Of a DNA stretch of 64,000 bases, positions 4,181 to 57,055 are shown piece by piece. The position numbers were made by a program, and so were the translations under genes. Under the pieces are notes generated by a model that worked only from the letters and a program-made list of their open reading frames with translations, had not been told where the DNA came from and made no database searches. Position 1 is the stretch's first letter, and each line of letters begins with the position of its first letter. The DNA comes from Candidatus Zhuqueibacterota bacterium (lineage in GTDB: Bacteria > Zhuqueibacterota > Zhuqueibacteria > Thermofontimicrobiales > Thermofontimicrobiaceae). The stretch is from the NCBI GenBank assembly GCA_016783825.1, contig JADHVV010000003.1:45-64044 (forward strand). Reading direction: 5' to 3'.

Positions 4181-4320
4181 GCTGGATTATGGTTGCTGGA
4201 TATTGGTTTTTTATTGCTGGATTTTGGATTGTTGATTACTTAGATTTGATTTCCATGATTATCAAGCATCAAGTATCCAGTATCAAATATCGAGCATCCA
4301 GTATCAAATTTCCAGTAATT
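4181..4320. repeat. long imperfect hairpin built from tandem words (GCTGGAT-type arm vs ATCCAGT-type arm) after the stop of the preceding gene
   Basis: Left arm gctggattatggttgctggatattgg...ttgctggattttggatt. Right arm gtatccagtatcaaatatcgagcatccagtatcaaatttccag. The arms are complementary if G-U pairs are allowed. Confidence 0.5.
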
Positions 4321-4359
4321 GACTTTATTATGAAAAACAAAAAAACAGGAGATATTCAA

Positions 4360-4824
4360 ATGGCAGAGCAATCACTTACATTCAAAGATGCAATTAAAGT
4401 CGCAATTAAAGAAGAGATTAAGGCGTATAATTTGTATATGGAAACAAGTAAAAAAGTGTCTGGCTCTGGTACAAAAAAGATGCTCGAAGAACTGGCTGAA
4501 ATGGAGAAGGGGCATCGTAAGCTTTTGGAAGGAGTTATTGAAAGGCAAAAATCAGATATACTGGGCAAGAATATCCCCAGACAGAGTCCAGGGATAGCAG
4601 ATTTTTTAGTTGAAGTTGAATTAAAACAAAATGCTACTCCACAGGATGTGATGATCTTTGCCATGAAAGCAGAAGAAAAAGCATTTAATTTTTACACAGA
4701 ATTGAAAGGACAGTTTTCAGGAACTGAATTAGAAAACTTATTTAATAGTTTGGTAGAGGAAGAAAAAGGTCATAAAATTAAGCTGGAAAATGAATATGAT
4801 GAATATATTTTGCGGGAAAATTAA
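4360..4824 (+). CDS. rubrerythrin-family diiron protein (erythrin-like), paralog 3
   Basis: ATG 4360 is preceded by AGGAG. ExxH sets EMEKGH and EEEKGH. The track ORF start at 4189 only reads through the hairpin repeat. Confidence 0.7.
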   Translation: MAEQSLTFKDAIKVAIKEEIKAYNLYMETSKKVSGSGTKKMLEELAEMEKGHRKLLEGVIERQKSDILGKNIPRQSPGIADFLVEVELKQNATPQDVMIFAMKAEEKAFNFYTELKGQFSGTELENLFNSLVEEEKGHKIKLENEYDEYILREN

Positions 4825-4953
4825 TTTGCTACTAATCATTATTTGTTATAGTACCTGAATGGTATTCTTGAAAAAATGTCAGCAACAACAATGAATGAAT
4901 ATATAATTAAAAATAATAGTAAATATTTTAATTAAACAATTGGAGGTTTAATT

Positions 4954-5526
4954 ATGAATTTAAAAGGAACAAAAACAGAAAAAAATATTTTAACAGCATT
5001 TGCAGGAGAATCACAAGCAAGAAATCGTTATTCCTACTTTGCCAGCAAGGCAAAGAAAGAAGGTTTTGTGCAGATTGCAGCTATTTTTGAGGAAACTGCT
5101 AACCATGAAAAGGAACATGCCAAACGCTTGTTCAAGTTGCTTGTAGGAGGAGAAGTAGAAGTTCAAGCCGCTTTTCCTGCTGGTATAATTGGCTCTACTG
5201 CGGAAAATTTAAAAGCCTCTGCGGGCGGTGAAAATCATGAATGGACAGAGATGTATCCATCGTTTGCCAACGTGGCTCGGGAAGAAGGTTTTGAAAATAT
5301 TGCTGAAATATTTGAAGCCATCGCCGTTGCAGAAAAACAACATGAGAAACGTTATCTCGATTTGATAAAAAACATTGAAGATGGCACAGTATTTAAAAAG
5401 GATAAAAAAGTTGTATGGCGCTGTCGTAATTGCGGCTATTTACACGAAGGAACTGAAGCGCTTGATGTCTGTCCCGCTTGCGCTCATTCAAAGGCGCATT
5501 TTGAGCTGTTGGGTGAAAACTGGTAG
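4954..5526 (+). CDS. rbr: rubrerythrin
   Basis: 190 aa. Diiron bundle (ETANHEKEH, GGENHEW, AEKQHEKRY) plus C-terminal rubredoxin-like CRNC...CPAC. SD GGAGG. Confidence 0.92.
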   Translation: MNLKGTKTEKNILTAFAGESQARNRYSYFASKAKKEGFVQIAAIFEETANHEKEHAKRLFKLLVGGEVEVQAAFPAGIIGSTAENLKASAGGENHEWTEMYPSFANVAREEGFENIAEIFEAIAVAEKQHEKRYLDLIKNIEDGTVFKKDKKVVWRCRNCGYLHEGTEALDVCPACAHSKAHFELLGENW

Positions 5527-5577
5527 GTTTGCTTTTTGCGGATTGAAGATTTTGAATTTAACCAAGGAGGTAAAATT

Positions 5578-6288
5578 ATGAGTGATAAACCAATAGGCTG
5601 TGCCAGACCAACTGGAGGTCCAGTAGGGACTAAACCAGTCAAAGAAAAAACAAATGAACAAAACTTTGAATTGAAAAAGGAGAAAATTATGGTTGAAGTA
5701 AAAGTTGGGCAAAAAGCCCCAGATTTTGAGTCGTCAGCTTTTTACAAAGGCGAATTCAAGAATATTAAACTTTCTGATTATCTTGGCAAATGGGTTATCC
5801 TGTGTTTTTATCCTGGCGACTTTACATTTGTCTGACCAACCGAGTTAGCGACAGTTGCCGCTAATTACGATAAGCTGCAAAAGTTAGGCGTTGAAGTATT
5901 AGCAATGAGTGTTGACAGTATGTTTGTCCATAAGATATGGCAGGAAGAAGAATTATCTAAAATGGTCAAGCGTGGCGTTCCTTATCCCATGCTTTCTGAT
6001 GGCGCTGGCAAAGTAGGAAAAGTTTACGGTGTTTACGATGAAGCCGCAGGGGTTGATATTCGAGGAAGGTTTTTAATTGACCCCGATGGCGTGGTTCAGG
6101 CAATGGAAGTAATGACTCCGCCAGTGGGAAGAAATATCAAAGAGTTGATTCGTCAGATTGAAGCGTTTCAGCATGTTAGAAAATCTAAAGGTTCTGAAGC
6201 CTGTCCTGCAGGATGGGAACCTGGAAAACCAACTCTTAAACCAGGACCTGCTTTAGTGGGTAAGGTTTGGGAAGAATGGAAACCGTAA
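5578..6288 (+). CDS. typical 2-Cys peroxiredoxin (AhpC/Prx1 type) with TGA (5833-5835) at the peroxidatic Cys position; candidate selenocysteine protein
   Basis: Track ORFs 5536-5835 and 5905-6288 share one frame. The joined sequence reads ...[10 protein letters not shown][TGA]PTELATV..., matching the invariant FTFVCPTE. The resolving Cys EACPAGW is present. Two SD-preceded starts: 5578 (AAGGAGG) and 5689 (AGGAG). Confidence 0.8.
5843..5866 (+). promoter_or_regulatory. candidate bacterial SECIS stem-loop
   Basis: AGTTAGCG (5843-5850) pairs with CGCTAATT (5859-5866), including one G-U pair. The 8-nt loop ACAGTTGC has a GU about 21 nt 3' of the UGA. Confidence 0.5.
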
Positions 6289-6296
6289 AAAAAAAA

Positions 6297-6393
6297 TGGA
6301 GTAATGGATAGATGGATTAATCGAGTGATGGATGAGTGGAGTATTGGATTAATGGAGTGATAATAACTCATTTTTTCAATACTCCAGCAATCC
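6297..6393. repeat. word-built hairpin (TGGAGT/TGGATT words) after the prx stop
   Basis: The 64-nt C-free arm tggagtaatggatagatggattaatcgagtgatggatgagtggagtattggattaatggagtga contains seven GGA. It is partly complementary to actcattttttcaatactccagcaatcc. Confidence 0.5.
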
Positions 6394-6462
6394 GTTTAAG
6401 TTAATATTTATCAAAATAATGAAAAAGTAGTAAAATTTAACGATCGTTTTGAGAGGTAAATT

Positions 6463-6975
6463 ATGATATCAGAAAAAATGACTGAAAAATTAAATGACCA
6501 AATCAAGCATGAGTTGTATTCCGGTCATCTCTATTTATCAATGGCAGCCTATTGCGCTTCCATTGACCTTGATGGATTTTCAAATTTTTTTGTTGTTCAG
6601 GAGCAAGAAGAACGTTTTCATGCGATGAAATTTTTTCATTATATTGTTGAACAAGATAAAGATGTTAAAATTTTCGGACTTGATCAACCAGAGACTGAAT
6701 TTGATTCACTGGAAGCTGTAATTGATGCTGCATGGAAACATGAACAGAAAGTAACTAAAAGATTATATGACTTAATGAATTTAGCAAATGAGGAAAAAGA
6801 TTTTGCCACGCAAAGCCTTTTGAAATGGTTTATTGATGAACAGGTTGAAGAGGAAGCATCAATGTTAGGGCTGTTAAAGAAAGTAAAGTTAGTAGGCGAT
6901 AAAGGACAAGGCATTTTTATGTTGGATAAGGAGTTAGCCGAGAGAACATTTGCTCCTCCTGCGGCTGAAAAGTAA
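6463..6975 (+). CDS. ftn: non-heme ferritin
   Basis: 170 aa. Ferritin-like ELYSGHLYLSMAAY, QEQEERFHAMKF and KHEQKVT blocks. Confidence 0.9.
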   Translation: MISEKMTEKLNDQIKHELYSGHLYLSMAAYCASIDLDGFSNFFVVQEQEERFHAMKFFHYIVEQDKDVKIFGLDQPETEFDSLEAVIDAAWKHEQKVTKRLYDLMNLANEEKDFATQSLLKWFIDEQVEEEASMLGLLKKVKLVGDKGQGIFMLDKELAERTFAPPAAEK

Positions 6976-6998
6976 AGATAGCAGTTTTTGAAACTCAA

Positions 6999-7426: not shown

Positions 7427-7518
7427 AATATTGCTCCGATATTAAATGATTAGCACAATAATATAATAAAGTTAAATCTCAAAAACAATAAAATATTTTT
7501 GAAATAAGGAGATTCATC

Positions 7519-7893
7519 ATGACAAAAATAAATCAAGTTTACAAGTGCGAAGTGTGTGGAAACATAGTTGAAGTTCTGCACACTGGAGCCGGCGAGTTAG
7601 TGTGCTGCAATCAACCAATGAATTTGTTGGAAGCAAATACCACAGATGCTGCAACAGAAAAGCATGTCCCTGTGATTGAAAAATCTGGTGATACAGTCAC
7701 AGTAAAAGTAGGGAGTGTTGACCATCCCATGTTGGATGAACATTATATTGAGTTCATTGAATTGATAGCTGATGGTCAGGTTTATCGAAAAGCTTTAAAA
7801 CCAGGCGACGCACCCGAAGCGACATTTAAAGTAAGTGCTGAAAACGTAGAAGCGCGTGCTTATTGTAACTTACATGGTTTGTGGAAAGCGTAG
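7519..7893 (+). CDS. dfx: desulfoferrodoxin (2Fe superoxide reductase)
   Basis: 124 aa. N-terminal desulforedoxin CEVCGN...CCNQPM and EKHVP SOR centre with C-terminal CNLHGLW. Confidence 0.9.
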
Positions 7894-8180
7894 TGCCCAA
7901 AATTTAAAGTTATGTTTATTACTAGGGCAAATTACTAAGGTAGTGTCAAAAGTTTTATGAAAAAATGAAAATTACCCCACGATACAATAAACGGCAAATG
8001 CAATGGGGGATGCGTATTCAGCCTTTCCCTTGCGCTGTCCAATAGCTAAATTGGGGGGAGAAAAATATATTGTGAGGGAGAATTTGTATGAAACCTTTAT
8101 TCATGGGGTGTTCATCAAAAAAAATCATAAAAAATGTCGAGAATTTTTGGCACTACCAAACTTTATAAGGAGAATAAACC

Positions 8181-9647
8181 ATGAAAGACGAAAAGAAGAA
8201 GTTGACCACCAATGCAGGCGCTCCCGTACCTGACAATCAGAATGTGATGACTGCTGGGCCTCGCGGCCCGCAGTTGCTGCAAGATGTCTGGTTCTTGGAA
8301 AAACTTGCCCACTTTGATCGTGAGGTCATCCCTGAGAGGCGCATGCATGCCAAGGGGTCTGGGGCGTATGGAACCTTCACCGTTACTCATGACATCACCC
8401 GCTACACCAAGGCAAAGATTTTCTCTGAGATTGGAAAGAAGACCGAACTTTTCACACGTTTCTCAACGGTGGCAGGTGAGCGCGGAGCGGCAGACGCGGA
8501 GCGTGATATCCGTGGATTTGCCATGAAATTCTACACTGAAGAGGGTAACTGGGACCTGGTGGGTAATAACACGCCCGTCTTCTTCCTGCGCGATCCACTC
8601 AAGTTCCCTGACCTTAACCACGCAGTGAAGCGAGATCCCCGAACAAACCTGCGTAGCGCCCGCAATAACTGGGACTTCTGGACATCACTGCCGGAGGCGT
8701 TACACCAAATCACAATAACCATGAGTGACCGCGGTATTCCTTACTCTTATCGCCACATGCACGGCTTTGGAAGTCATACCTTTAGCCTCATCAATGCCCA
8801 AAATGAACGGTACTGGGTGAAGTTCCATTTTGTCAGCCAACAGGGCATCAAGAACCTAACAGATGCCGAGGCCGAGGCCACCATAGGTAAGTGCCGGGAA
8901 AGCCACCAACGCGACCTCTATGAAAGCATTGAGAAGAAGGACTTTCCGAAGTGGAAGCTTTTCATCCAAGTAATGCCGGAGAAGGAAACCGCCAACTGCC
9001 CGTACAATCCATTTGACCTGACAAAGGTATGGCTCCGCAAGGACTACCCGCTAATTGAGGTCGGTATTTTGGAGCTGAATCGCAACCCCGAAAACTATTT
9101 TGCTGAGGTCGAACAGTCCGCCTTCAACCCGGCCAATATCGTCCCTGGTATTGGTTTTTCACCCGATAAAATGTTACAGGGCCGTCTGTTCTCGTACGGT
9201 GATGCTCAGCGTTATCGGCTTGGTGTGAACCACCACCTGATTCCGGTCAACGCATCGCGCTGCCCCTTCCACAGTTACCACCGCGATGGAGCCATGCGAG
9301 TCGACGGCAACCATAGCGGCACTCTCGGTTATGAGCCAAACAGCTACGGTGAGTGGGAACAACAGCCAGGCTTTTCAGAACCACCTATTAGCCTGGACGG
9401 AGCTGCCGATCATTGGAACCATCGTGATGACGACGATTACTACACCCAGCCCGGCTTGCTTTTCCGACTGATGAGCCCTGAACAGAAAGAAGCGCTCTTC
9501 GCCAATACCGCCCGTGCCATGGGCGATGCTCCCGAGGAGATTAAGATCCGCCATATCGGCAACTGCAAGAATGCCGATCCGGCTTATGGAAAGGGCGTGG
9601 CCGACGCTTTGGGCATTTTATTTGACGATGTACCCAGAGAGTCATGA
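8181..9647 (+). CDS. katA: monofunctional heme catalase
   Basis: 488 aa. FDRE.IPER..HAKG.GA.G.F, RFSTV.GE.G.AD..RD.RGFA.KFYT and VGNNTPVFF blocks. Visibly higher GC than its neighbours. Confidence 0.95.
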
Positions 9648-9670
9648 AGCAAGCAGCTAACAAACAAATT

Positions 9671-9697
9671 CAGCGGACGCAAAAAGCCGCGCCGCTG
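9671..9697 (+). terminator. GC-rich hairpin after the catalase gene
   Basis: cagcgg(a)cgc-aaaaagcc-gcgccgctg followed by attt. The U-tract is weak. Confidence 0.4.
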
Positions 9698-9818
9698 ATT
9701 TGGGTTAGAAGTACACCAAAGTATAAGCTAATAACTACTTCTATTTTAGCTCACTTTAGGTTATTACACTTTAGAGCACTTCAAACTTTAGGCATTTTCA
9801 TGTTTTTGTAATTTGCTT

Positions 9819-9840
9819 CTGGCTTGTCCAGATTAGGAAA
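9819..9840. repeat. solo copy of a 22-nt motif related to the MITE family A terminus
   Basis: ctggcttgtccagattaggaaa matches 52521-52542 at 21/22 positions and resembles the cttagtcagattagga end at 17465-17480. Confidence 0.45.
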
Positions 9841-9889
9841 TAAATATAAATCATATTAACTTATAACTTAAAATTAGGAGAATCAGTAA

Positions 9890-10438
9890 ATGAAAAAATT
9901 CGTATGTTCAGTATGTGGTTATGTACACGAAGGTGATGCCCCACCGGAAAAATGTCCCCAGTGCGGCGCACCAGCAGATAAATTTTATGAGCAAAAAGCT
10001 GGAGAATTGAATTGGGCAGATGAGCATAAGATAGGCGTTGCAAAAGGCGTTGATCCTGATGTTGTTGAAGGTCTCAAAATGAATTTTACAGGTGAATGCG
10101 CAGAAGTTGGCATGTATCTTGCGATGAGCCGTCAGGCAGATAGAGAAGGTTATCCTGAAGTAGCAGAAGCTTATAAAAGAATCGCCTGGGAAGAAGCAGA
10201 ACATGCTTCAAAATTTGCTGAATTATTAGGCGAAGTTGTGGTAGCAGATACCAAGACAAACCTGAAAATGCGAGTCGATGCTGAATTTGGTGCTTGTCAG
10301 GGTAAAAAGGATTTAGCGACAAAAGCAAAACAATTAAATTACGATGCTATTCATGACACAGTTCATGAAATGTGTAAAGATGAAGCGCGTCATGGCGCTG
10401 CTTTTGCCGGACTTTTGAAACGCTATTTCGGTGAATAG
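9890..10438 (+). CDS. reverse rubrerythrin (N-terminal rubredoxin-like domain + diiron bundle)
   Basis: 182 aa. N-terminal CSVCGY...CPQCG, then EC.E..MYLAM and EEAEHA, DEARHG ligand motifs. Confidence 0.85.
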
Positions 10439-10456
10439 ATTGGTAAAGGAATAATT

Positions 10457-11224
10457 ATGAACGAAAATCTTGGCATTGCGTTACTGCTAACCACCGGAGC
10501 CGGACTTGCTACGACGATTGGGAGTTTGATAGGTTTAGCAGTGCGCAAACCAGGACCCAAGTTTATGGGATTTACGCTCGGTTTTTCTGCCGGTGTGATG
10601 ATCCTGGTTTCTTTTGTTGAGTTGCTGCAAGGGAGCGTTGAGTCCATCGGATTTTTATCTGCTCACCTGGCATTTTTTCTTGGTATGATAAGTTTTTTCC
10701 TGATTGATACACTGATACCTCATGATTACATCGGTCAGTATGACCACAAGATATGCGAATCAGATCATGGATTGAAGCGTACCGGCATGCTCATCGCATT
10801 AGGCATTGGAGTTCATAATTTCCCTGAAGGTTTAGCAACTTTTGCCGGCGCGCTTGAGGATGTTCATCTTGGAATCGCAATTGCAGTAGCCATAGCTATC
10901 CACAATATTCCGGAAGGACTGGCAGTTTCTGCGCCTATTTACGCAGCAACCGGTAGTCGTAAAAAAGCATTTTTCTGGTCATTTCTCTCTGGTGTGAGTG
11001 AACCAATTGGCGCGGGTCTGGCAGCGCTTGTGCTTTTGCCTTTTTTAACAACAGTAGTTGTTGGTTGGCTGCTTGCAGCGGTTGCCGGGATAATGATTGC
11101 TATTTCACTCGATGAAATAATACCCGTAGCAAAAACTTTTGGAGGTGAGCATTCGCACGTACCTATACTCGGTATTATCACTGGTATGTTTGTAATGGCG
11201 GTCAGTCTGTGGTTACTGAATTGA
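10457..11224 (+). CDS. zupT: ZIP-family zinc transporter ZupT
   Basis: 255 aa, multi-TM, with HNFPEGLA and HNIPEGLAV motifs. Confidence 0.9.
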   Translation: MNENLGIALLLTTGAGLATTIGSLIGLAVRKPGPKFMGFTLGFSAGVMILVSFVELLQGSVESIGFLSAHLAFFLGMISFFLIDTLIPHDYIGQYDHKICESDHGLKRTGMLIALGIGVHNFPEGLATFAGALEDVHLGIAIAVAIAIHNIPEGLAVSAPIYAATGSRKKAFFWSFLSGVSEPIGAGLAALVLLPFLTTVVVGWLLAAVAGIMIAISLDEIIPVAKTFGGEHSHVPILGIITGMFVMAVSLWLLN

Positions 11225-11349
11225 TATAATATCAGATCTATACATAAAGAAAAAATATAGACAAAATTATGGATGACAAAATGATAGTTTATCAAGACAT
11301 TTAGTAACATTTCACCATTTGTGTTATTCATTATTTTGATATCAGAACA

Positions 11350-11458
11350 ATGATTAACGATTTACGATTTTAGAAGTATTGTTGATATTTTCAATCAAAT
11401 TTTATAATTCAACGTTCCTTCATAAATCAAAAATCGTTAATCTTTATTCGTAAATCAT
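11350..11458. repeat. word-built hairpin (GATTAACGATTTACGA words) downstream of zupT
   Basis: atgattaacgatttacgatttt (11350-11371) vs aaaaatcgttaatctttattcgtaaatcat (11429-11458). Confidence 0.5.
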
Positions 11459-11647
11459 CTTTTTAGAAAAAAATGTTAGGGAGGTGAACTATTACGACAT
11501 TTATTTTTTTGTCGTCCATTATTTTGTCTTTTGATGTGAATTGTAGTTACCAAATCATTTGAACAATTAACAATTCAGGAATGGGATGAATAAATTATCG
11601 AATTACACATCCTATCTTTTTAACTACATTTAAGAAAAAAGGAAAGT

Positions 11648-14269: not shown

Positions 14270-14352
14270 ATTGTAATTGGAATCTTGGAGTGATGGAAAT
14301 TGGATTATTGTTATTGTTGCATTGATCCGGTGCTCCATTTTTCCAGTTCCAT
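14270..14352. repeat. word-built hairpin (TTGGA/ATGGA words) after the barrel gene
   Basis: attgtaattggaatcttggagtgatggaaattggatt vs gatccggtgctccatttttccagttccat. Confidence 0.45.
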
Positions 14353-16994: not shown

Positions 16995-17126
16995 GGTGAT
17001 GGAGTGGGAGAGAGGGTGAGAGGGAGACAAGGAGAGATGGTGATGGGGAGAAAACAACATCAAGTATTTAGCATACTTTTTTAGTTATACTTTCTCCCCA
17101 GCTTCCATTATCACGCTCTCCCACTC
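16995..17126. repeat. about 130-nt word-built hairpin (GGAGTGGGAGAG / GGGGAGAAA words) after the CBS gene
   Basis: ggtgatggagtgggagagagggtgag...gatggtgatggggagaaa pairs with tttctccccagcttccattatcacgctctcccactc. Confidence 0.55.
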
Positions 17127-17461: not shown

Positions 17462-17621
17462 CTACTTAGTCAGATTAGGACAAAAAACAATATTACTAAG
17501 AAAAACCAATGAATGGTACTGTCATTCCGGCAATTTTTAAGCCGGAATCTCCTGTTCTTCTGAGGAGTTTCCCGCTAAAAACGTGCGGGAATGACAGGAT
17601 GACCGAAATCTGACAAAGTAG
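17462..17621. mobile_element. MITE-like nested palindrome, family A copy 1
   Basis: Termini are ctacttagtcagat / atctgacaaagtag. The core hairpin is gtcattccggc...gccggaatc...cgggaatgac (17521-17594). Confidence 0.5.
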
Positions 17622-22041: not shown

Positions 22042-22076
22042 TATAAGGCATAAAATCAACAGAGTCATTAATATTT

Positions 22077-22219
22077 CTAATTAGTGTATGTCCGAGAAAG
22101 CAGTTATTCCGGTTGGAGCGCAGCGGAATACCGGAATCTTGTGCATAAAACCATGAGATTCCGGCACAAAAAATCGCCGGAATGACAAAACATACCTTTT
22201 TCGGACAGACACTAATTAG
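22077..22219. mobile_element. MITE-like nested palindrome, family B copy 1
   Basis: Termini are ctaattagtgtatgtccgagaaa / tttttcggacagacactaattag. The core is nearly identical to the core of family A copy 2 (attccggttg.agcg.agcggaataccggaatct...gagattccggca.aaaaa.cg.gccggaatgac). Confidence 0.5.
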
Positions 22220-22240
22220 CAACAGATCATCCAGGATTAT

Positions 22241-33726: not shown

Positions 33727-33854
33727 AGCAGAATAATTATTAGCAGAATAATGATAAGATAAAAATTTGGAAACTGATATTCAGCCAAATAACGGGTTAC
33801 AAAAAGAAAAATAAATAATATAATTTGGCTAAATTTAATTCAAATAATTCTGCT
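33727..33854. repeat. AGCAGAATAAT inverted-repeat module, copy 1
   Basis: agcagaataat at 33727 and 33742 (15-nt spacing). The degenerate partner aataattctgct lies at 33843-33854. About 90 nt upstream of start 33640. Confidence 0.5.
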
Positions 33855-34169
33855 ATCAATTATAAAAATCAACAAAACAGTGTAGTAGTGAATTTAAATA
33901 GAGCATAATAATTCATTGATCGAAGCAATGTTTTGGTGACATATATTTTGCCATCTAATTACAGATTCCTTAATTAAATCAAAAAAAATCCGGCAAAATA
34001 ATGTATAATTAGCTATCACCTCCTTCCATGTCTATATAGTATTACCAGTGAACTCTTTGTTTTTTCCGACAAAAAGAAGTCGGATTTTCAATTTGCCTGT
34101 GCAGTTACCTTATTATTATTAAATGAAACATCCGCCGCGGCGGACGCAAAAGTATCCAAATATACAGCA

Positions 34170-34221
34170 ATTTGGTGGATTGGAAGGGACTAATCACCAA
34201 TAACAATTCACCAGTTACCAA
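34170..34221. repeat. word-built hairpin just downstream of the glnA stop
   Basis: atttggtggattggaaggg vs tcaccaataacaattcaccagttaccaat. The GC hairpin tccgccgcggcgga lies at 34131-34144. Confidence 0.4.
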
Positions 34222-34240
34222 TGCACTTTAGTGCGCTAGG

Positions 34241-35662
34241 TTAAATATCATAAAACCGGGCAACTTCCCAGGGATGCGGAATGCGGCGCATTTCATCAAT
34301 ATCTTTTCTTTTTGCTGCAATCCACTTGTCGATTAAATCTTGTGGAAACACATCGTTTAATAATAAATAGTCGTGATTTGCTTCCAGGTGATTCAATGCG
34401 CTTTCCAGGGAATTTGGAAAAGATTGAATTTTTTTCAATTGCTCCGGAGATAGATCATACAAATTTGTTTCAAAAGGGCCAAAGCCTTCTTTCGTTGGAT
34501 CTATTTTTTGGCGTACGCCATCGATCCCAGCCATAAGCATTGCTGCATAAGCAAGGTAAGGATTACAGGTTGCATCGATGGTACGAAATTCAAATCTTCT
34601 TTCCTGTGGATTGTTTACATAACCCGGGATACGAATAGCAGCCGAACGATTCCCCTCTGCAAAAACAGCTTTTACCGGCGCTTCAAACCCGGGTATGAGT
34701 CGGCGATAGGAGTTTGTTGTTGGATTGGTAAAAGCTAATAATGACGATGAGTGTTTGAGAATTCCACCCAAAAAATTCAGCGCAATTCCGCTGAGTTTGT
34801 ACAATCCGTTGTCATCATGGAAAATATTTTTTCCATTTTTTAACAGGAATTGGTGAACGTGCATTCCATTACCAGCTTCGCCCGGTACCAGTTTTGGCAG
34901 AAAAGAGATGACTTTACCAAATTTTTTTGCCAGACGATGGGAAATATTCTTGGCTAAAACAGTGGCGTCTGCTGCATGTTCAATCGGCATAAACTGAAAC
35001 TCAATTTCAGCTTGTGTACTGCCCACTTCATGATGATGATATTTCACTGGAATTTTTAATTGCCCCAATGTCCTGACAATGGTGTTGCGAATTTCAAAAA
35101 GATGATCGTTGGGATCTGCCCGGTAATAGCCGCGGTTCGTTGCCAGACGATAACTCTCCTCTCCTGTGGCTGGACTGGCTATCTCGCAGCTCTCGATGCC
35201 GTAAGAAACATGTCTGTTCGTCAACTTACTAAATAGCTCGTCCAGCACATTAAATTCCAACTCTATTCCCAACATCACCTGGTCGGCGATATTCTCCTGC
35301 TTTAATGTATCCAACGCCTTTGAAATAATGTGGCGCAAGTCCTGGTTAAAATTTTTTCCTTCCTTTACATCAAATACATGACTGAAAAAATAGAGCGTTT
35401 TGGAATCCACATCCACCGGATCCTTAAATGCAAAAGTAAGGTCAGGGCGGAGGATCATGTCCGATGATGCCACGTTGGCAAATCCTAAATTTGAAGCATC
35501 AAACCCGATTCCATGTTTAACTAATTGTTCTGAAAAATTTTCAGCAGGGATGGTTACGTTGCGCAGACGTCCATCAATGTCGGCGATATAAAAAGAAATG
35601 AATTCGATATTGTTTTCCTGGACATATTCCAGCGCTTGTTTTACAGAAGCAAAATTTTGCAT
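34241..35662 (-). CDS. glnA: glutamine synthetase, type I-like
   Basis: ATG 35662 follows GGAGAG. GS blocks FD.S, HHHEV....Q.EI, NG.H.H.S and the R.P........E.R motif. Confidence 0.88.
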   Translation of the reverse strand: MQNFASVKQALEYVQENNIEFISFYIADIDGRLRNVTIPAENFSEQLVKHGIGFDASNLGFANVASSDMILRPDLTFAFKDPVDVDSKTLYFFSHVFDVKEGKNFNQDLRHIISKALDTLKQENIADQVMLGIELEFNVLDELFSKLTNRHVSYGIESCEIASPATGEESYRLATNRGYYRADPNDHLFEIRNTIVRTLGQLKIPVKYHHHEVGSTQAEIEFQFMPIEHAADATVLAKNISHRLAKKFGKVISFLPKLVPGEAGNGMHVHQFLLKNGKNIFHDDNGLYKLSGIALNFLGGILKHSSSLLAFTNPTTNSYRRLIPGFEAPVKAVFAEGNRSAAIRIPGYVNNPQERRFEFRTIDATCNPYLAYAAMLMAGIDGVRQKIDPTKEGFGPFETNLYDLSPEQLKKIQSFPNSLESALNHLEANHDYLLLNDVFPQDLIDKWIAAKRKDIDEMRRIPHPWEVARFYDI

Positions 35663-35753
35663 TGTTTTTCTCTCCAATGATTAAGGAATATTTATTTGCA
35701 TATTTAGACAGGATTAGTAATTCTGCGATAAAGTTTACATAGTCATTCATGGT

Positions 35754-35847
35754 CGCAGAATTATTTTTAGCAGCCTGTCCGCTTTCTTTTCGGCGGAAAT
35801 AATAAAAAATAGAGCTTTTCATAATTCTGCTGCAAATTATTCTGCGA
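35754..35847. repeat. AGCAGAATAAT inverted-repeat module, copy 2
   Basis: cgcagaattatttttagcag (35754-35773) vs aattctgctgcaaattattctgcga (35823-35847). The inner GC hairpin is gtccgctttcttttcggcgga. Confidence 0.55.
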
Positions 35848-35850
35848 CAA

Positions 35851-37932
35851 TTATTTTAAATACAAAATTTTTATTGAACTCTTCGCACGAACAGTTTTTA
35901 AAACAACGAAGTAAGTTCCTGATGCCGGAACTCGAAAACCGCTAATTGAAAACAATTGATTGAAATCCAGGCGTATCTTATAGCTGCCTGCGCCATGGTA
36001 TTCATTATGAATAAGATGCATGACTAACCGACCGTTAATATCATACAGCTCCAAATCCACAAGACCAGGTTGCTGCAGATAATATTGTACGATGGTTGCA
36101 GCATTAAAAGGATTTGGGTAATTTGTCAGCAACCGAAAATTATTGCTTTGGCTGCCTGTTTTCAATATTTTTATTTTGGTAGTGTTGTCATCAAAATATA
36201 CAGTCGGTAAAAATTGGAATTCATCGCTAGTAATTCGGTATTCACGATTTTTTGATTCCATAGTGACTGTGCTGCCTGAAACAAAAGCAAAACGATATTT
36301 TAACAACTGCTCGATGTTTGAATAATCAAAGCCAATAGTCGCTTCATACACTCCATTTGAATCAGGTCCGCTAAAAGCTTCACTGTTTTGATAACCACTT
36401 AATGGGAGGATATTCCCCCTGACGACGACGTCTCCATCGTTTAAAATGTGATTGGACATGTTTACACGAAAACTAATTTTACGATCCGGACGTACTTTGA
36501 TCGCTTTAACCGGTGACCAGCCCAACCATGCACTGTCGGCAAAAGCCCGGACACGAAAGTAAAATGTCCCTGATTTTGATTCAGGATAAAATAAGTCATT
36601 CACATTCGCTACATAAAATGAATCCTGAATCGTACCATTGAGCGTACTCCATTGACCATTATTTTTTTCGCTGTACTGGAGTTCATACTTATCGGAACTA
36701 ATTCGAAAAGATGTATGCCAGGCTAAAAAAAGTGAATCCTGGGTAAGCAGAAAGGAATCCGCAAATACCGGCACAGGTGTAAAATTTATCACAGCGCCAT
36801 CAATAATCGAGTATCCGCTTGCATTAAAGGAACCTTGCAAATCGTACCAGCCGTTGTTTTTGCCAAGCCAGCCCATATTCATGTGATAATAATTATTTTG
36901 ATCTGCATATCCGTCCACAACTACCGAGTGTCCAAAACCATTGGCTGATGAAATAGCAATTTGAACCGGTCTCTTGTGCTGCATTTCATTTTTTAGCTGC
37001 TGAAAAAATTCTTCCGATGGGGTATCCAAATATTGGGCTTGATAGGCAAAATAATTCGATACGGCTGCCGAAACATCCCGCGTTGATGCAGTCGATCCGG
37101 AGTACTCATAGTCCATTTCCAAACTCACACCGCAATGGAAGCCAAGCAGAGCGACAGCTTCTTTTTGTGCTTGCGTGCTGGCGACACCATGATAGATATC
37201 AAGCATATTTTCCCAGTCATAATATGTTGAGTCGAAATTTGCTGAAATCACACCCGCATCATCTTCATTGTAGATATGTGAAACAATACCGCGTTTTGGC
37301 CAGCGATAGTAGTGAAGGATTTGAGACATCGCCGTTGCCACACAGCCGGTTGACCAATTGTTGGGTGTGTAAAGGTTAAACACGTTTGTCCCATTCACTT
37401 TGCCCTGTCCCCACTTTGAGGTAATAAAGGGCCCCACAATATCCGTCGCTGATTGGGTATGGATATCCGTAAAATCCATATTTAAAAGTGTAAACCATTT
37501 TTGTTGATTGCTCAAAATAGTTGCCGGTGAAATTCGATTTTCTTCCAGCGCCTTGAACCGAATGGTTAAGTCAGCGCGTATCATTTGCAACAACGTATTC
37601 TGATGGATATTTTCAGCGAAAAACCGGGATTCATTTGAGAAAGCCAATACCGGGTTGATGTGGTTATCATTGGAAAGAATAACAAAACCGGTTGGCTCTA
37701 ATTGGTAAACGTAAGCAATCGTTTTTTTATTCGTAAGATTTTGTATCGGAAAAAATAAATCGCTATTTTGTACAAGATGATACTTTTTCCGGATTGCTTT
37801 GAAAATTGTATCATCAGCAAGTAGCCATGTTTCGCCGGCTTTGCGAACAAGTTCCGAGTCAAGCGTTTCGCCTTGAACCAAAGCAACAGTAAGTAACAAA
37901 GAAATGAGAATTATTTGTAAATATTTGATCAT
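35851..37932 (-). CDS. C10-family (streptopain-like) cysteine peptidase, T9SS cargo
   Basis: 693 aa with a signal peptide. TSKWGQG...YTP.....GCVATAMSQILHYY catalytic Cys block. TNYPNPFNAATIVQY C-terminal domain. Confidence 0.85.
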   Translation of the reverse strand: MIKYLQIILISLLLTVALVQGETLDSELVRKAGETWLLADDTIFKAIRKKYHLVQNSDLFFPIQNLTNKKTIAYVYQLEPTGFVILSNDNHINPVLAFSNESRFFAENIHQNTLLQMIRADLTIRFKALEENRISPATILSNQQKWFTLLNMDFTDIHTQSATDIVGPFITSKWGQGKVNGTNVFNLYTPNNWSTGCVATAMSQILHYYRWPKRGIVSHIYNEDDAGVISANFDSTYYDWENMLDIYHGVASTQAQKEAVALLGFHCGVSLEMDYEYSGSTASTRDVSAAVSNYFAYQAQYLDTPSEEFFQQLKNEMQHKRPVQIAISSANGFGHSVVVDGYADQNNYYHMNMGWLGKNNGWYDLQGSFNASGYSIIDGAVINFTPVPVFADSFLLTQDSLFLAWHTSFRISSDKYELQYSEKNNGQWSTLNGTIQDSFYVANVNDLFYPESKSGTFYFRVRAFADSAWLGWSPVKAIKVRPDRKISFRVNMSNHILNDGDVVVRGNILPLSGYQNSEAFSGPDSNGVYEATIGFDYSNIEQLLKYRFAFVSGSTVTMESKNREYRITSDEFQFLPTVYFDDNTTKIKILKTGSQSNNFRLLTNYPNPFNAATIVQYYLQQPGLVDLELYDINGRLVMHLIHNEYHGAGSYKIRLDFNQLFSISGFRVPASGTYFVVLKTVRAKSSIKILYLK

Positions 37933-37981: not shown

Positions 37982-38208
37982 AGCAGAATAATTTATAGCA
38001 GAATAATTCTACTTTGTCACATTATCATTATTCGTTTGTCATTCCGGTTGAAGCGAAGCGGAATACCGGAATCTCGTTAGAATTTAGCAGGAGATTCCGG
38101 CAAAAAAACGTGCCGGAATGACAATTCTTTGGTAGTTTATCTAATCTGACAAAGTAGAAATAATTAGAACCAAAGTTTTTCATCATTCTGCTAGAAATTA
38201 TTCTGCGA
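37982..38208. repeat. AGCAGAATAAT inverted-repeat module, copy 3 (carries a nested MITE)
   Basis: agcagaataat at 37982 and 37997. The partner cattctgctagaaattattctgcga lies at 38184-38208. Confidence 0.6.
38009..38157. mobile_element. MITE-like nested palindrome, family A copy 2, inside module copy 3
   Basis: Termini are ctactttgtcacat / atctgacaaagtag. The core is gtcattccggttgaagcgaagcggaataccggaatct...gagattccggcaaaaaaacgtgccggaatgac. Confidence 0.55.
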
Positions 38209-38227
38209 TTAAATCTTTAGAACCAAA

Positions 38228-42309: not shown

Positions 42310-42409
42310 TTTCAATTAATTCCTTTTTTGACCGGATTTCAGGATGACAAGGATTTAAAGGATTTCTTTTGACTATTCGTTGAGTGACATTGCTTGAGTA
42401 AACGAATAT

Positions 42410-42525
42410 AGCAGAATAATTTTTAGCAGAATAATGAAATATTAAAAGTTTCATCGTTTCAAATTATATCTCATAAGGAATTTTCCTTTATTATTTTAAT
42501 CATTCTGCTACAAATTATTCTGCGA
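42410..42525. repeat. AGCAGAATAAT inverted-repeat module, copy 5 (best preserved)
   Basis: agcagaataat at 42410 and 42425. The partner cattctgctacaaattattctgcga lies at 42501-42525. Confidence 0.65.
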
Positions 42526-42612
42526 GTATTATAACCTGTCAATCCTGATAATTGTATATTGAAATATTCTAAAAGTTATCCACACTAGTGCGCTGTAATA
42601 TAAATTTTACCA

Positions 42613-44005: not shown

Positions 44006-44100
44006 TCATCAAGGGGATTTTTGTAACTCGTCAATTGTTTTTTGGCAAAATAAATAAATATTTACCCAACCTGGTTAAACCAGAATCAAAAAGAGAAATG

Positions 44101-44213
44101 AAAGGAGTGATGGAGTATTAGAGAAATGGATCGTCCGCCGGCTGGCGGAGATGCGACTCGTCGCATTATTTAAATGCAAGCTCCATTACTCCAACACTCC
44201 ATTACTCCCTTTT
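44101..44213. repeat. three-way palindromic element downstream of the permease gene
   Basis: Outer arms aaaggagtgatggagtattagagaaatgga / gctccattactccaacactccattactcccttt enclose two GC hairpins: tccgcc-ggct-ggcgga and atgcga-ctcg-tcgcat. Confidence 0.55.
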
Positions 44214-44274
44214 GGGCATAATTGTTACCTTTAGTTTTTTTTGCCCATTGTGCAATGATTTTATTTTTTAAGAA

Positions 44275-51758: not shown

Positions 51759-51772
51759 TTTAGGAGAGAGAA

Positions 51773-52348: not shown

Positions 52349-52412
52349 TAAATAGTATCTAAACAATGAACTTCTTGCACATTGGGCAAAAAAAATTGAA
52401 TTTAAAATAAGA

Positions 52413-52518
52413 GGGTTGGGAAGGTAATTTGGTAATAAGGAAATTGGGTAATAAAAAATAGATAAGTATTTTGAATTCCCAATTACCCAATAAACTAATT
52501 ACCCAGTTACCTCATTGG
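52413..52518. repeat. word-built hairpin (GGTAAT words) after lemA
   Basis: gggttgggaaggtaatttggtaataaggaaattgggtaat vs attcccaattacccaataaactaattacccagttacctcattgg. Confidence 0.55.
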
Positions 52519-52520
52519 CT

Positions 52521-52543
52521 CTGGCTTGTCCAGGTTAGGAAAA
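52521..52543. repeat. second solo copy of the 22-nt TIR-like motif
   Basis: ctggcttgtccaggttaggaaaa. See 9819-9840. Confidence 0.45.
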
Positions 52544-52615
52544 ACAGTAGCAGAGGCAGTTGCAGTCAGGTTATTGTTCTCGCTTCAAGACTGTTTCTGC
52601 CACTGCTACTGCAAC
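52544..52615. repeat. word-built hairpin (CAGTAG/CAGAGG/CAGTTG words) in the cstA leader
   Basis: acagtagcagaggcagttgcagtc vs gactgtttctgccactgctactgcaac. Confidence 0.5.
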
Positions 52616-54339: not shown

Positions 54340-54406
54340 TCGTTTACCATCTGTTTTCTGATAAAGTCGCTCGTTCATAAAAGAACAGGAGAATATGGCG
54401 GAATGA

Positions 54407-54452
54407 GGGAAATTAGGTAATAAGGTAATTTGGTAATTAGGTAATTAGGAAC
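54407..54452. repeat. tandem GGTAAT-word array after cstA, direct repeat of 52420-52452
   Basis: gggaaattaggtaataaggtaatttggtaattaggtaattaggaac. No complementary arm is nearby. Confidence 0.55.
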
Positions 54453-54484
54453 TTATAAATCCACAATGGGCAAAGAATCAAAAA

Positions 54485-54543
54485 GACAGAAAAATGAATG
54501 ACAGAAAAATGCCTTATTTTTTTGTCATCCATTTTTCTGTCAT
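54485..54543. repeat. word-built hairpin (GACAGAAAAATG words)
   Basis: gacagaaaaatgaatgacagaaaaatg vs tttttttgtcatccatttttctgtcat. Confidence 0.55.
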
Positions 54544-54689
54544 AATGGTTCTGGTTTGTTCAGATTGTGTAATTAATTTCAATAAAATTGATAAATTAAT
54601 TATTACTGTCCTAACAATGAGCAAAGATAATATTGACATTGAGCATGAATCATGGTTACACTTTTCAGCTAAAAGATTGACAACCGCTT

Positions 54690-55664
54690 ATGGCGATAAT
54701 GAACCGGAATATTCTCTTGACCTCATCAAAAACAAGAATTCGGAGTATAAAGAAAGGTGTTGTAGTGCTTACGCTAATTCCACAATCAAATAGAGTTTGG
54801 TTCGCAAAACATTTCATAATAATTTCTGTACTGTCTTTATTAACATCTGGCTGCAGCATCCAAAAATTAGCTGTCCGTTCCATGAGCGGAATTTTGGACA
54901 ACAGCATGTCTGCACTCTACGAAGAAACCGACCTTTTATTAGCAGAACAAGCATTAGCTTCCGATTTAAAATTGCTCGAAGGACTCATAAAAACCGATCC
55001 GGGAAATGAAAAATTATTATTGATGGCAAGCCAGGGATTTGGTGCTTATGCGCTCGGTTTTGTTGAAGATGAAAATTCCGAGCGGGCAAAAAATCTCTAC
55101 TTGCGGGGAAAGGGCTATGGATTTAAAATTTTAAACAAAAATCCAAACTTTCAAAAATCCATTACCGGTTCAACAGAAGACCTGAAACAAGCCCTCGCTT
55201 CATTCAGTAAAAAAGATGTACCGGCTCTTTTTTGGACTGCCAACAACTGGGCAAACTGGATCAATCTGAATTTCAACAATCCGGATGCGCTCATCGATCT
55301 GCCAAGAGTTCAACTTTTAATGGAGCGGGTGCTTGAGTTGGATGAATCATATTTCTTTGGCGGTGCGCACCTGTTTTTTGCTACTATTTATGCTGTGCGC
55401 CCTCCCATTTTGGGGGGCGATATTAAAAAATCGGAATACCATTTTAACAGGTGTTTCAATTTCAGTAGTGAAAAATTTTTGCTTCCTTACGTCTATTATG
55501 CGCAATTTTACCTGACACGACAATTTGATGAGGATTTGTTTGTAAAGACATTGGAAAAAGTGCTAAACACACCAGGTGATATTTTACCAGGGCAGCAGTT
55601 GCCGAATGCGATTGCGAAAGAGAAAGCCAGGAAGCTACTAAATAACAAAGATGAACATTTTTAA
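54690..55664 (+). CDS. tatT: TatT-type TPR lipoprotein associated with TRAP transporters
   Basis: Lipobox LLTSGC. AEQALASDLKLLEGLIKTDP.N..LL..A.QGF.AYA.GFVED block. The true start is uncertain; GTG 54765 after AAAGAAAGG is plausible. Confidence 0.78.
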   Translation: MAIMNRNILLTSSKTRIRSIKKGVVVLTLIPQSNRVWFAKHFIIISVLSLLTSGCSIQKLAVRSMSGILDNSMSALYEETDLLLAEQALASDLKLLEGLIKTDPGNEKLLLMASQGFGAYALGFVEDENSERAKNLYLRGKGYGFKILNKNPNFQKSITGSTEDLKQALASFSKKDVPALFWTANNWANWINLNFNNPDALIDLPRVQLLMERVLELDESYFFGGAHLFFATIYAVRPPILGGDIKKSEYHFNRCFNFSSEKFLLPYVYYAQFYLTRQFDEDLFVKTLEKVLNTPGDILPGQQLPNAIAKEKARKLLNNKDEHF

Positions 55665-55717
55665 CGGAACGTCCGCCGTCTTTTTGGCGGATTGTCAATT
55701 GTTTTTGGAGATAGCTG

Positions 55718-56779
55718 ATGAAAAAAATACCACTTATCATCCTTCTGTTGTTACTAACTAATACCCTTACATTTGCCCAAAAATACAAAATAAAATTCGC
55801 CAGCCTTGCCCCTGACGGTTCTACGTGGATGAATGTCATGCGTGAGTTGGATCAAACAATCAGGCAAGAAACAGGCGGTGAAGTCGGTTTCAAAATTTAC
55901 CCGGGCGGTGTTGCCGGTGATGAAAAAGATGTGCTGCGCAAAATCAGACTGGGACAGCTTCACAGCGCCGGATTCACTGGTGTTGGGCTTGGTGAAATTT
56001 TCTCCGAAGTGCGTATTTTTGATTCGCCTTTTTTATTCAGGAATTATGAAGAAGTCGATTTCATTCAGAAAAAATTCTTTGATCAATTTGCAAAAGGTTT
56101 TGAGGAAAAAGGATTCATTTTATTGGGATGGGCTGATGTCGGATTTGTTTATGTTTTCTCAAACTCGCCTGTCAAAAAATTAGACGATATGAAAAAAGTA
56201 AAAATGTGGATGTGGGAAGGCGATTTTGTGGCTGAGGCAACCTTCAAAGCGTTGTCAATAAATCCCATTCCATTATCCGTCATTAATGTAATGACAGCGC
56301 TGCAGACAGGAATGGTAAATGGTGTTTACACTTCTCCCCTGGCAATGATCGCTTTGCAATGGTTCACCAAAGTAAAATACATGATGAAAATATCACTTGC
56401 TGATGCTGCCGGCGCTGTGTTGATTTCGAAACGAATGTTCAATAAACTGCCCCCGGAATATCAAAATATATTGAAAACAAAATCAAAAGAATATCTTACA
56501 AAATTAATGAAATTGAGCCGTGAAGATAATCAGCGCTCAATCGAGACGCTAAAAAAAAATGGTATCAAACTTGTTCCCGCGCCACCTGCTGAACAGATGT
56601 CACAATTTTATGAAGCCGGCAAAAAAGCACGCCGGATGATGGCGAAGAAACTTTATTCTTTAGAATTGGTGGAAGAAGTGGAAAAGTCTTTAATTGATTA
56701 TCGCAAGCGGAGCCTAATTCCAAAATCCAAAATTCCAAATAATAAATCAGAAAATCTAAAAATTCCTAAATCCAAATAA
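55718..56779 (+). CDS. dctP: TRAP transporter substrate-binding protein (DctP family)
   Basis: 353 aa with a signal peptide and DctP-family blocks. The last about 20 codons run into a word repeat (IPKSKIPNNKSENLKIPKSK). Confidence 0.88.
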   Translation: MKKIPLIILLLLLTNTLTFAQKYKIKFASLAPDGSTWMNVMRELDQTIRQETGGEVGFKIYPGGVAGDEKDVLRKIRLGQLHSAGFTGVGLGEIFSEVRIFDSPFLFRNYEEVDFIQKKFFDQFAKGFEEKGFILLGWADVGFVYVFSNSPVKKLDDMKKVKMWMWEGDFVAEATFKALSINPIPLSVINVMTALQTGMVNGVYTSPLAMIALQWFTKVKYMMKISLADAAGAVLISKRMFNKLPPEYQNILKTKSKEYLTKLMKLSREDNQRSIETLKKNGIKLVPAPPAEQMSQFYEAGKKARRMMAKKLYSLELVEEVEKSLIDYRKRSLIPKSKIPNNKSENLKIPKSK

Positions 56780-57055
56780 CAAACAAATCTCAAATTCTAA
56801 TTTTTTAAACAAATTAGTGCCTGTCCGAAAACAAAGAAATTTTGAATTTTAACTGTCATTGCGAGGAGCGGAGCGACGAAGCAATCCCTTGATTTTTAAG
56901 AGATTGCTTCGCTCCTTCGTCGCTCGCAATGACAGCAAATATTTAAGTTAATTATTTTCCAGACAGCCACGAATTAGAGAACTTAATAGTCACAGCTTGA
57001 AATTTGAATTATTGATAATTGGAATTTGGCTATTGGAGCTTGGAATTTAAATTTT
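56713..57055. repeat. long-range word-built inverted repeat (AATTCCAAA / TTTGGAATT words) with a MITE in its loop
   Basis: Left arm cctaattccaaaatccaaaattccaaat...attcctaaatccaaata. Right arm aatttgaattattgataattggaatttggctattggagcttggaatttaaatttt. Confidence 0.5.
56810..56977. mobile_element. MITE-like nested palindrome, family B copy 2
   Basis: Termini are caaattagtgcctgtccgaaaa / ttttccagacagccacgaattag. The core hairpin is gtcattgcgaggagcggagcgacgaagcaatc...gattgcttcgctccttcgtcgctcgcaatgac. Confidence 0.55.

Follow-up and report, generated by a model that had tools for sequence, protein, structure and literature searches.

The 64 000-nt window analysed here, bases 45-64044 of contig C105, belongs to a metagenome-assembled genome (MAG) of 4.54 Mb in 260 contigs, with a G+C content of 37% and a completeness of 83%, and the host was placed in Calditrichota because its GlnA is 87% identical in amino-acid sequence to that of a Caldithrix sp. 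MAG. Between its genes the window carries long imperfect hairpins with arms built of slightly varied tandem copies of a short word, and at all eleven loci for which a preliminary description, made from the sequence alone, had listed such structures, the fold was seen. These hairpins are 52-343 nt long with 22-49% G+C, have stems of about 20-50 nt with bulges, and often have loops of more than 10 nt. They belong to dispersed repeat families, have arms in common with two kinds of gene cassette, lie in many cases within a common sequence frame, and turn over between related genomes. The rubrerythrin region of the window was present with an identical hairpin in an independent assembly of run SRR12042682, and the hairpins are therefore not artefacts of one assembly. 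A simple codon-usage open reading frame (ORF) picker served for gene calling; it assigned 3550 genes, with 83% of the sequence coding.

Folding was compared with 200 dinucleotide shuffles per locus at ten of the loci, the 343-nt structure at 56713-57055 being too long for a shuffle control. Nine of the ten folded far better than expected (z -2.45 to -10.0), eight of them being matched by none of the 200 shuffles and the one at 52413 by two, whereas the palindrome claimed at 34170-34221 was weak (z -0.6). The description of the arms as tandem words likewise stood for the greater part, as Tandem Repeats Finder returned arrays with periods of 7, 8, 14 or 16 at seven loci (4181, 6297, 11350, 16995, 44101, 52413 and 56713), and failed for 14270 and 34170, which are barely periodic; the hexamers at 52544 were recognised by eye. 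Copies elsewhere were obtained by blastn of the window hairpins against the genome.

The spacer between the stop codon of rubrerythrin-2 (4179) and the start codon of rubrerythrin-3 (4360) is occupied by a hairpin at 4181-4320 (plus strand) with heptamer arms, nYTGGrT and the complementary ATCCAGn (-40.9 kcal/mol, z -4.2; array period 7/14/21), of which the arms only recur at 25 other genomic sites. Nine nt past the peroxiredoxin stop codon, 6297-6393 (plus strand) consists of a 64-nt TGGAGTnA/TGGATTnA array, in which only the last ca. 25 nt pair with a short complementary arm at 6369-6393 (z -3.75; period 8/16; 15 other sites, arms only); the array had been called C-free and contains one C. 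A half unit missing from the earlier list was identified at 9741-9838 (plus strand), where an array of ACTTTAG words is followed by the right-hand part of the frame treated below, TTCTGGCTTGTCCAGATT (9817-9834). At the locus listed as 11350, a hairpin of weakly periodic ACGATTT words (11337-11457, z -5.75) lies within a larger dispersed repeat unit; copies are present at 33 other sites, those of full length having 84-92% identity and conserved flanks, and the repeat occurs at more than 15 sites in a genome that belongs to the same taxonomic order and to another family. The hairpin of TTGGAG/ATGGAA-like words at 14270-14352 (plus strand; -31.7 kcal/mol, z -4.9) has no other site in the genome. 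A purine-rich GGAG/GGGAGA hairpin at 16995-17126 (plus strand; z -3.7; period 8), 2 nt past the stop codon of a CBS-domain gene, has 16 other sites, ca. 71% identical across about 110 nt.

Directly past the glnA stop codon, blastn copies delimit a dispersed repeat of ca. 100 nt at 34141-34242 (minus strand), the core of which, 34170-34221, folds with -9.9 kcal/mol on the glnA sense strand. This repeat has 12 other sites, the best being 96-98% identical at full length with flanks conserved, and is absent from L001, the genome with 87% amino-acid identity in GlnA, which is only about 70% identical in DNA. The unit past the permease stop codon at 44068-44262 (minus strand) is framed, comprising a left frame CAATGGGCAA, a hairpin of GGAGTAAT words (44101-44213; -55.3 kcal/mol, z -7.8) with GC-rich mini-palindromes nested inside its loop, and a right frame TTCTGGTTTAACCAGGTT (44068-44085); it has 29 other sites, the best copies being of full length, loop included, with 78-84% identity. 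A second framed unit (52352-52539, plus strand) begins 4 nt past the LemA stop codon and contains a hairpin of GGTAATTn words (52413-52518, z -2.45) followed by the right frame (52519-52536); it has 140 other sites, and full-length copies are 94-97% identical. Upstream of cstA stands a hexamer hairpin of CAGTAG/CAGAGG/CAGTTG words (52544-52615, plus strand; -33.8 kcal/mol, z -4.9), for which blastn gave one other site and whose word class is that of the arms of a PF05635 gene on contig C137. The region 54411-54569 (plus strand) comprises a AATTAGGT array (54411-54449) and then a framed unit, with a hairpin at 54485-54543 (z -10.0) and a right frame at 54549-54566; the word of this hairpin, previously given as a 12-mer, is in fact a 15-mer present in two copies (GACAGAAAAATGAAT), and 10 other sites have 86-95% identity at full length. 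Finally, 56713-57055 (plus strand; -95.7 kcal/mol) is a composite inverted repeat in which outer AATTCCAAA and TTTGGAATT arms, the C/A-rich arm first, surround a GC-rich palindrome unrelated to them (56842-56946); blastn gave 40 further sites for this palindrome and 12-17 for the outer arms (arms only).

Word arrays in practice yield false ORF starts and tails in automated annotation. The ORF extension beginning at 4189 had rightly been suspected to be spurious, as conservation in a relative begins only at the ATG at 4360, and the last 66 nt of the ORF at 55718-56779 extend into the AATTCCAAA array.

According to the preliminary description each locus used a word of its own and the sequences were locus-specific. 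This had to be abandoned: six of the eleven loci have near-full-length copies, and for most loci 10-140 other sites were found. Full-length copies of 52413, 34170, 54485, 11350 and 44101 include the loop and flanks at 78-98% identity, and in alignments with flanks the repeated units extend beyond the hairpins. Because copies of 94-98% identity include loop and flanks, whole units appear to have been copied, rather than generated locally at each gene end. The proposal that the hairpins are of one architectural class and of common origin fared well.

A conserved frame surrounds many of them. An 18-mer, TTCTGGCTTGTCCAGGTT, which is itself a small CTGG/CCAG hairpin, was present at 121 sites, as compared with 6 for its reversed control, and the hairpins immediately before it belong to six or more word families (GGTAATTn, GATCAAG-type hexamers, CGCAAAGA, GACAGAAAAATG, GGAGT/GGATT, and CTAAAGT). 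At 45 sites a left frame, TTAGTATCTAAAAAGTnAATTTCTTGCACAATGGGCAAGAAAA, with its own TTCTTGC/GCAAGAA hairpin, lies 80-280 nt upstream of TTCTGGCTTGTCCAGGTT. Framed units are neutral towards gene orientation, 45 being co-oriented and 41 opposite. In the window three loci are framed (44101, 52413, 54485), in addition to the half unit at 9741-9838. At up to two mismatches the frame has 81 copies here, and among the comparison genomes (G-numbered, all from outside this genome's own genus) 62 in G006, 81 in G019, which belongs to another family, and 0-16 in most others, a patchy distribution of the kind typical of element bursts. In G023, of the same class and another family, 19 frame sites were found, mostly TTCCGGCTTGTCCGGGTT, in which both sides of the CTGG/CCAG stem are changed and pairing is kept. 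No target-site duplication was visible by eye in the 45 framed units with flanks, and the two frame ends are unlike each other.

Genome-wide, hairpins were scanned for by our own local alignment on both strands of the 4.54 Mb, with a score cut-off of ≥44 and 40-nt block shuffling as the control. The scan returned 858 intergenic hairpins as compared to 20 after shuffling; after merging, 1206 hairpins remained, of which 1029 were non-coding and covered 18% of the intergenic DNA. Single-linkage clustering merged most hairpins into one lump, and hence counts per family are approximate. The 5' arm was periodic, i.e. beyond 99% of shuffled arms, in 19% of the hairpins against an expected 1%, the dominant periods being 6, 7, 8 and twice these values. 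In total, 274 non-coding hairpins were periodic in at least one arm, and 224 inverted array pairs not more than 60 nt apart were counted.

A position just after stop codons, as first described, turned out to be a bias and not a rule: in co-oriented gaps 62% of the periodic hairpins were nearer to the stop codon than to the next start (p = 0.002). By type of gap, 186 periodic hairpins were in co-oriented, 26 in convergent and 12 in divergent gaps, the convergent excess over the divergent having p = 0.03 by gap count and p = 0.0003 by gap length. The statements that most hairpins lack a U-tract and are not classical intrinsic terminators were both upheld, as at least six T in 10 nt were found at 19% of the periodic hairpins and in 11% of background 10-mers, and as the shape of stem and loop is unlike that of a terminator. 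A consensus terminator scan of 44-64 kb flagged no word hairpin and gave a good terminator at 62353-62379, and Rfam at gathering score returned no match in the whole window. On the position and U-tract data, the 3'-end association is thus a bias, and the hairpins are not classical terminators.

The G-rich arm comes first in 83% of the periodic hairpins. Orientation towards transcription was considered as the explanation and rejected, since palindrome polarity is equal on both strands; the polarity is a family-specific chirality. As any transcript would make the G-rich arm first, the C-rich arm would never be unpaired and Rho-loading sites would be avoided. By a crude measure of arm co-adaptation, complementarity was 0.44 between own arms and 0.42 to arms of the same family at other loci, with no locus-specific compensatory change evident.

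The same word classes were found around genes of two families. We take PF05635 to be the '23S rRNA intervening-sequence protein' family, an Avd-like four-helix bundle, and PF13366 to be PDDEXK_3 (PD-(D/E)XK_3); to our knowledge both are small, widespread gene families without tested function. The genome contains five to six PF05635 genes and about ten PF13366 genes, and both families were present in all 14 genomes of the taxonomic family. Here their flanks carry inverted arrays whose word classes are those also seen in gene-less hairpins, with arm words GGTCGAG/GATCAAG, AGGCGA and CAGTGG (the class of window locus 52544) at the PF05635 genes on contigs C146, C220 and C137, and CGCAAAGA, CACAAAG and CACGGAT at the PF13366 genes on contigs C121, C258 and C11, respectively. 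When all genes were screened for inverted 7-mers common to both flanks, 148 of 3279 passed, and among the 74 passing genes of up to 300 aa the only recurrent protein families were PF13366 (5 of 8 members) and PF05635 (3 of 4). In the two families together 8 of 12 members are thus bracketed, as compared with 148 of 3279 among all genes (odds ratio 45, p = 6e-9). Complementary arms enclose four of five PF05635 genes in this genome, these being gene-bearing cassettes and not window hairpins.

Across genomes, 25 PF05635 loci were located, and most have, by eye, word arrays on both flanks, usually in the order purine-rich array, ribosome-binding site, gene, and complementary array, some with a whole hairpin on each side. 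Among their arm words, TGGATAC at L136 is of the same class as window locus 4181, and GGATTGATGAGTTGATGG at L132 is of the same class as 6297. For PF13366, 18 of 26 loci had at least five inverted 7-mers common to the flanks. PF05635 proteins of at least 63% identity have common arm words even where the outer context is unrelated (L131/L133, L137/L146), a comparison in which only top-of-list ranking was used, as a threshold of at least eight shared 7-mers was too lax. Because related proteins have common arm words in unrelated contexts, arms and gene appear to be inherited as one unit. One PF05635 protein of this genome matches PDB entries 2GSC and 2RLD, with five chains each as deposited, and Avd, the accessory protein found in diversity-generating retroelements, is regarded as a homologue of the family (PMC10053308). 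In the literature no paper was found linking PF05635 or PF13366 to tandem-word arrays, and almost nothing was found on PF13366 or TIGR02436.

An internal control was provided by two Y1/RAYT-like genes of this genome (C183:16791-17234 and C245:4009-4557 of G000), which are bracketed by their own dispersed palindromes, similar to repetitive extragenic palindromic (REP) sequences and present also as gene-less copies, as is known of classical REP-RAYT pairs. PF01797 gave four matches, and the two intact genes with flanks read carry other, non-tandem palindromes and not word arrays. Long-range inverted array pairs around larger genes were also tried as cassettes and rejected, as most enclose housekeeping genes between two hairpins of abundant families.

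Comparison of orthologous gaps with relatives, the check proposed at the outset, found junctions that were empty, filled, or filled with a different family. The gap between rbr2 and rbr3 holds a TGGAT-type hairpin in the window, a AATTCCAAA-type hairpin in G006, G010 and G008, and other structures in G005, G012 and G017, and is short and empty in G018, G020 and G003. L046, a metagenome contig about 85% identical in DNA, has a different-family hairpin after the peroxiredoxin gene. At the junction 12997/13011, the spacer of 13 nt in the window is matched in L046 by a 150-nt unit that ends in the frame and is inserted between the stop codon and the next ribosome-binding site, and three further, differing structures occur in L048, L049 and L054 (four with L046). 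PF05635 cassettes were present at a macA/macB-like junction in seven genomes and at the junction of a resistance-nodulation-division (RND) adaptor and pump in three, and the gmd/fcl junction holds a PF13366 cassette here and a PF05635 cassette in G003. As cassettes and units recur at such junctions, stop-to-start operon spacers appear to be recurrent landing or retention sites.

The shared-junction PF05635 loci, from several genera, are L126, L127, L129, L130, L134, L139 and L150, as well as C146 of G000, L143 and L144, and the pair at the gmd/fcl junction is C170 of G000 with the PF13366 cassette and L137 with the PF05635 cassette. In addition, the syntenic L046 lacks a 3.7-kb segment of the window (7893-11591), in which a ZIP transporter and a gene of 48.6% G+C (8181-9647) are encoded; repeat units lie near both edges of this segment (9741-9838 and 11337-11457).

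On balance, we consider it probable that the window hairpins are gene-less copies of dispersed, probably mobile foldback cassettes, of a class so far little described and comparable to REP/RAYT, that are tolerated in transcribed spacers. Each arm strings together 2-8 degenerate copies of a word of 6-9 nt, the hairpins are gene-less foldback repeats, and their full-size relatives are promoter-less cassettes in which inverted word arrays, or two whole hairpins, bracket one PF05635 or PF13366 gene. As a second packaging, many gene-less hairpins are enclosed by the two-part frame, each part with a small hairpin of its own. Whole units may be copied into the short stretches that separate a stop codon from the following gene, where, lacking a U-tract, they would not terminate transcription and would be tolerated, and the words would come to differ in number and spelling through slippage inside the arrays. 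Each transcript crossing a unit would gain a long imperfect stem of -25 to -55 kcal/mol. Such a stem would most plausibly behave as REP and rRNA intervening-sequence stems do, and either block 3' exonucleases or serve as a substrate of RNase III, the gene for which is present in the genome; by analogy, 3' protection and RNase III processing are plausible roles. With its nuclease fold, PF13366 would be the obvious enzyme candidate for its own families, and PF05635 may be a binding partner. The mobility mechanism, any part that the two proteins play in it and any effect on RNA are inferred.

A wider claim, doubtful although worth stating, is that arrays together with a PF05635 or PF13366 gene constitute a cross-phylum class of mobile cassettes not yet described, REPIN-RAYT-like and lacking an HUH transposase. 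In such a class the protein would recognise the words on its own arms and on gene-less copies, the cores in Calditrichota would in addition be framed and swappable, and the short tandemly repeated repetitive (STRR) sequences of cyanobacteria, the heptamer pairs of Xanthomonas and those rRNA intervening sequences that code for a protein would all represent states of a single system. The new parts are the link to cassettes and the modular frame; intergenic palindromic and tandem repeats themselves are of a known kind. Since hairpin repeats occupy about 18% of the intergenic DNA and lie in operon-transcribed spacers, they probably shape many transcripts. Tandem heptamers have been known for decades in cyanobacteria and Xanthomonas, their origin unexplained, and the same architecture is present here in a distant phylum; the association with PF05635, PF13366 and the frame turns a descriptive puzzle into questions of whether the proteins bind or cut their own arms, whether units are copied, and whether RNase III processes them.

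Several observations weigh against descent from mobile cassettes. Neither a transposition event nor a mobilising enzyme was shown, and we know of no catalytic activity of PF05635, a small helical bundle. No gene-bearing unit with both frames was found, which in a fragmented MAG of 83% completeness is weak evidence, and the largest word families (GGTAATTn, GGTGAGT and GGAGTAAT) were without a gene-bearing copy in the same incomplete assembly. Several cassettes stand at the same operon junction across genera, which looks like stable inheritance and not frequent movement. With no other copy of 14270 and one of 52544, some local origin is possible. Moreover, the preference of periodic hairpins for stop-proximal positions and convergent gaps points to some selection at the RNA level, as hinted also by their slightly higher stability on the sense strand (57%, p = 0.03).

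These positional data also fit a rival reading, close to the main one of the preliminary description, in which the hairpins are RNA elements that arise on the spot at gene 3' ends, through slippage and palindrome-templated copying, and are kept as stabilisers, pause or end signals. The stop-proximal bias (62%, p = 0.002), the 26 hairpins in convergent against 12 in divergent gaps, and the slightly better folding on the sense strand all fit, some gaps hold different-family hairpins across genera as if any hairpin were wanted, and cyanobacterial STRR hairpins have been proposed to raise transcript stability (PMC2670836). We nevertheless regard such local manufacture as unlikely, given that near-identical full-length copies with loops and flanks are spread genome-wide, framed units occur in either orientation (45 against 41), 12 periodic hairpins lie in divergent gaps, U-tracts are near background, the same arrays bracket genes, and some orthologous gaps are simply empty. 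A different role, as cognate multi-site binding platforms for a PF05635 pentamer or a PF13366 protein in a two-part regulatory or conflict system, with the gene-less hairpins as extra sites and not mobile DNA, would account for the tight cross-genus association of both gene families with arrays, for the arm words common to related proteins, for the five chains of 2GSC and 2RLD, and for the resemblance of PF05635 to Avd of diversity-generating retroelements (PMC10053308). The binding is purely putative, however, word families without a matching gene here account for hundreds of hairpins, and the common words would be explained just as well if the cassette descended as a whole, which leaves this role quite unlikely in our judgement.

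That the hairpins have neither function nor mobility, and arose neutrally in AT-rich spacers through replication slippage and template switching, would agree with the degenerate words, the variable copy number, and arms no more complementary to each other than to same-family arms from other loci (0.44 against 0.42). It is made very improbable by the ca. 40-fold excess over composition-matched shuffles, by full-length copies conserved at many sites, by the same word families in different genera and families, and by a conserved frame motif with a compensatory variant. Least credible of all is that the G-rich arms, rich as they are in GGA and GGAG, serve as CsrA/Rsm-type GGA sponges or anti-Shine-Dalgarno decoys, an earlier speculation. 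The GGA words are base-paired within stems and not exposed in loops, many families are without any GGA (e.g. AATTCCAAA, CGCAAAGA and GATCAAG), and no CsrA gene (PF02599) was found in the 83%-complete genome, while control genomes gave matches.

The window contains further repeats. A separate dispersed family consists of inverted pairs of GCAGAATAAT-N5-GCAGAATAAT with a period of about 15 and 50-190 nt between the arms, located in the window at 33733-33863, 35730-35870, 37983-38217, 42405-42530 and 62133-62307; in the relative L048 such an element is nested in a word hairpin. GC-rich palindromes of other families are nested in, or adjoin, word hairpins at 56842-56946, 17519-17597 and 22072-22224, the families being CTGTCATTGCGAGGAGCGGAGCGACGAAGCAATC (40 other sites), CTGTCATTCCGGC...GCGGGAATGACAG, and TAATTAGTGTCTGTCCGAGAAAG. 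The ORFs at 5536-5835 and 5905-6288 look like halves of one AhpC/peroxiredoxin gene split by an in-frame TGA (5833-5835); the Pfam match of the second ORF begins at profile position 66, and L046 aligns straight across.

Among known systems, the hairpins resemble REP/BIME (REPIN)-RAYT systems, in which imperfect palindromes likewise number in the hundreds in intergenic DNA, for the most part where the neighbouring genes are co-oriented or convergent, with dispersed gene-less copies and a small gene bracketed by inverted copies; two classical pairs of that kind are present in this genome. They differ in that the bracketed genes are PF05635 and PF13366 instead of a Y1 HUH transposase, that the arms are tandem arrays of a short word instead of a single 20-40-nt palindrome, and that many word families coexist, with no mobilising activity known. 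REPs stabilise upstream mRNA (PMC5317091). For Caldithrix abyssi, the genome paper described only an 18-nt palindrome (PMC5317091).

In Xanthomonas, inverted GGGAATC heptamer arrays have positional statistics very similar to those found here: about 90% are intergenic, they lie near the upstream ORF and mostly between co-oriented genes, and 70-75 convergent pairs could fold into stem-loops (Rehm et al. 2015, PMC4692102). Cyanobacterial STRR heptamers form hairpins, some of them between hupS and hupL (PMC2670836). Tandem units of ca. 7 nt, intergenic location near the upstream ORF and inverted pairs are thus common to all three; unlike those arrays, the present ones come from a different phylum and comprise dozens of word families per genome with periods of 6-9 nt, and bracketed genes and a conserved frame are not described in those papers (PMC2670836, PMC4692102). 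Bacterial miniature inverted-repeat transposable elements (Correia/NEMIS, RUP and Nezha; PMC3184786) are likewise non-coding dispersed hairpins of 100-200 nt with burst-like copy numbers and presence or absence between relatives, but the present units have no terminal inverted repeats of an identifiable insertion sequence, and their frame has two unlike ends and a swappable core.

With intrinsic terminators the hairpins have in common a stem-loop downstream of a stop codon, and differ in their far longer, A-U/G-U-rich stems, large loops and the absence of a U-tract in about 80%. Integron attC sites, in which a core GTTRRRY is expected opposite an inverse core, were considered, as the frame ends in GGTTRGG, and rejected, as the left end has no conserved inverse core (RYYYAAC) and the units are scattered among housekeeping genes in both orientations without cassette arrays; intI was not searched for. 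In Leptospira and Coxiella, 23S rRNA intervening sequences carry a PF05635 ORF, and RNase III excises the stem in the rRNA. The cassettes resemble these in having a PF05635 gene between two complementary arms that form a long stem; unlike them, they reside not in rRNA but in mRNA, in the spacers of operons of an ordinary kind such as those for efflux or GDP-sugar, and most copies here have lost the gene or never had one.

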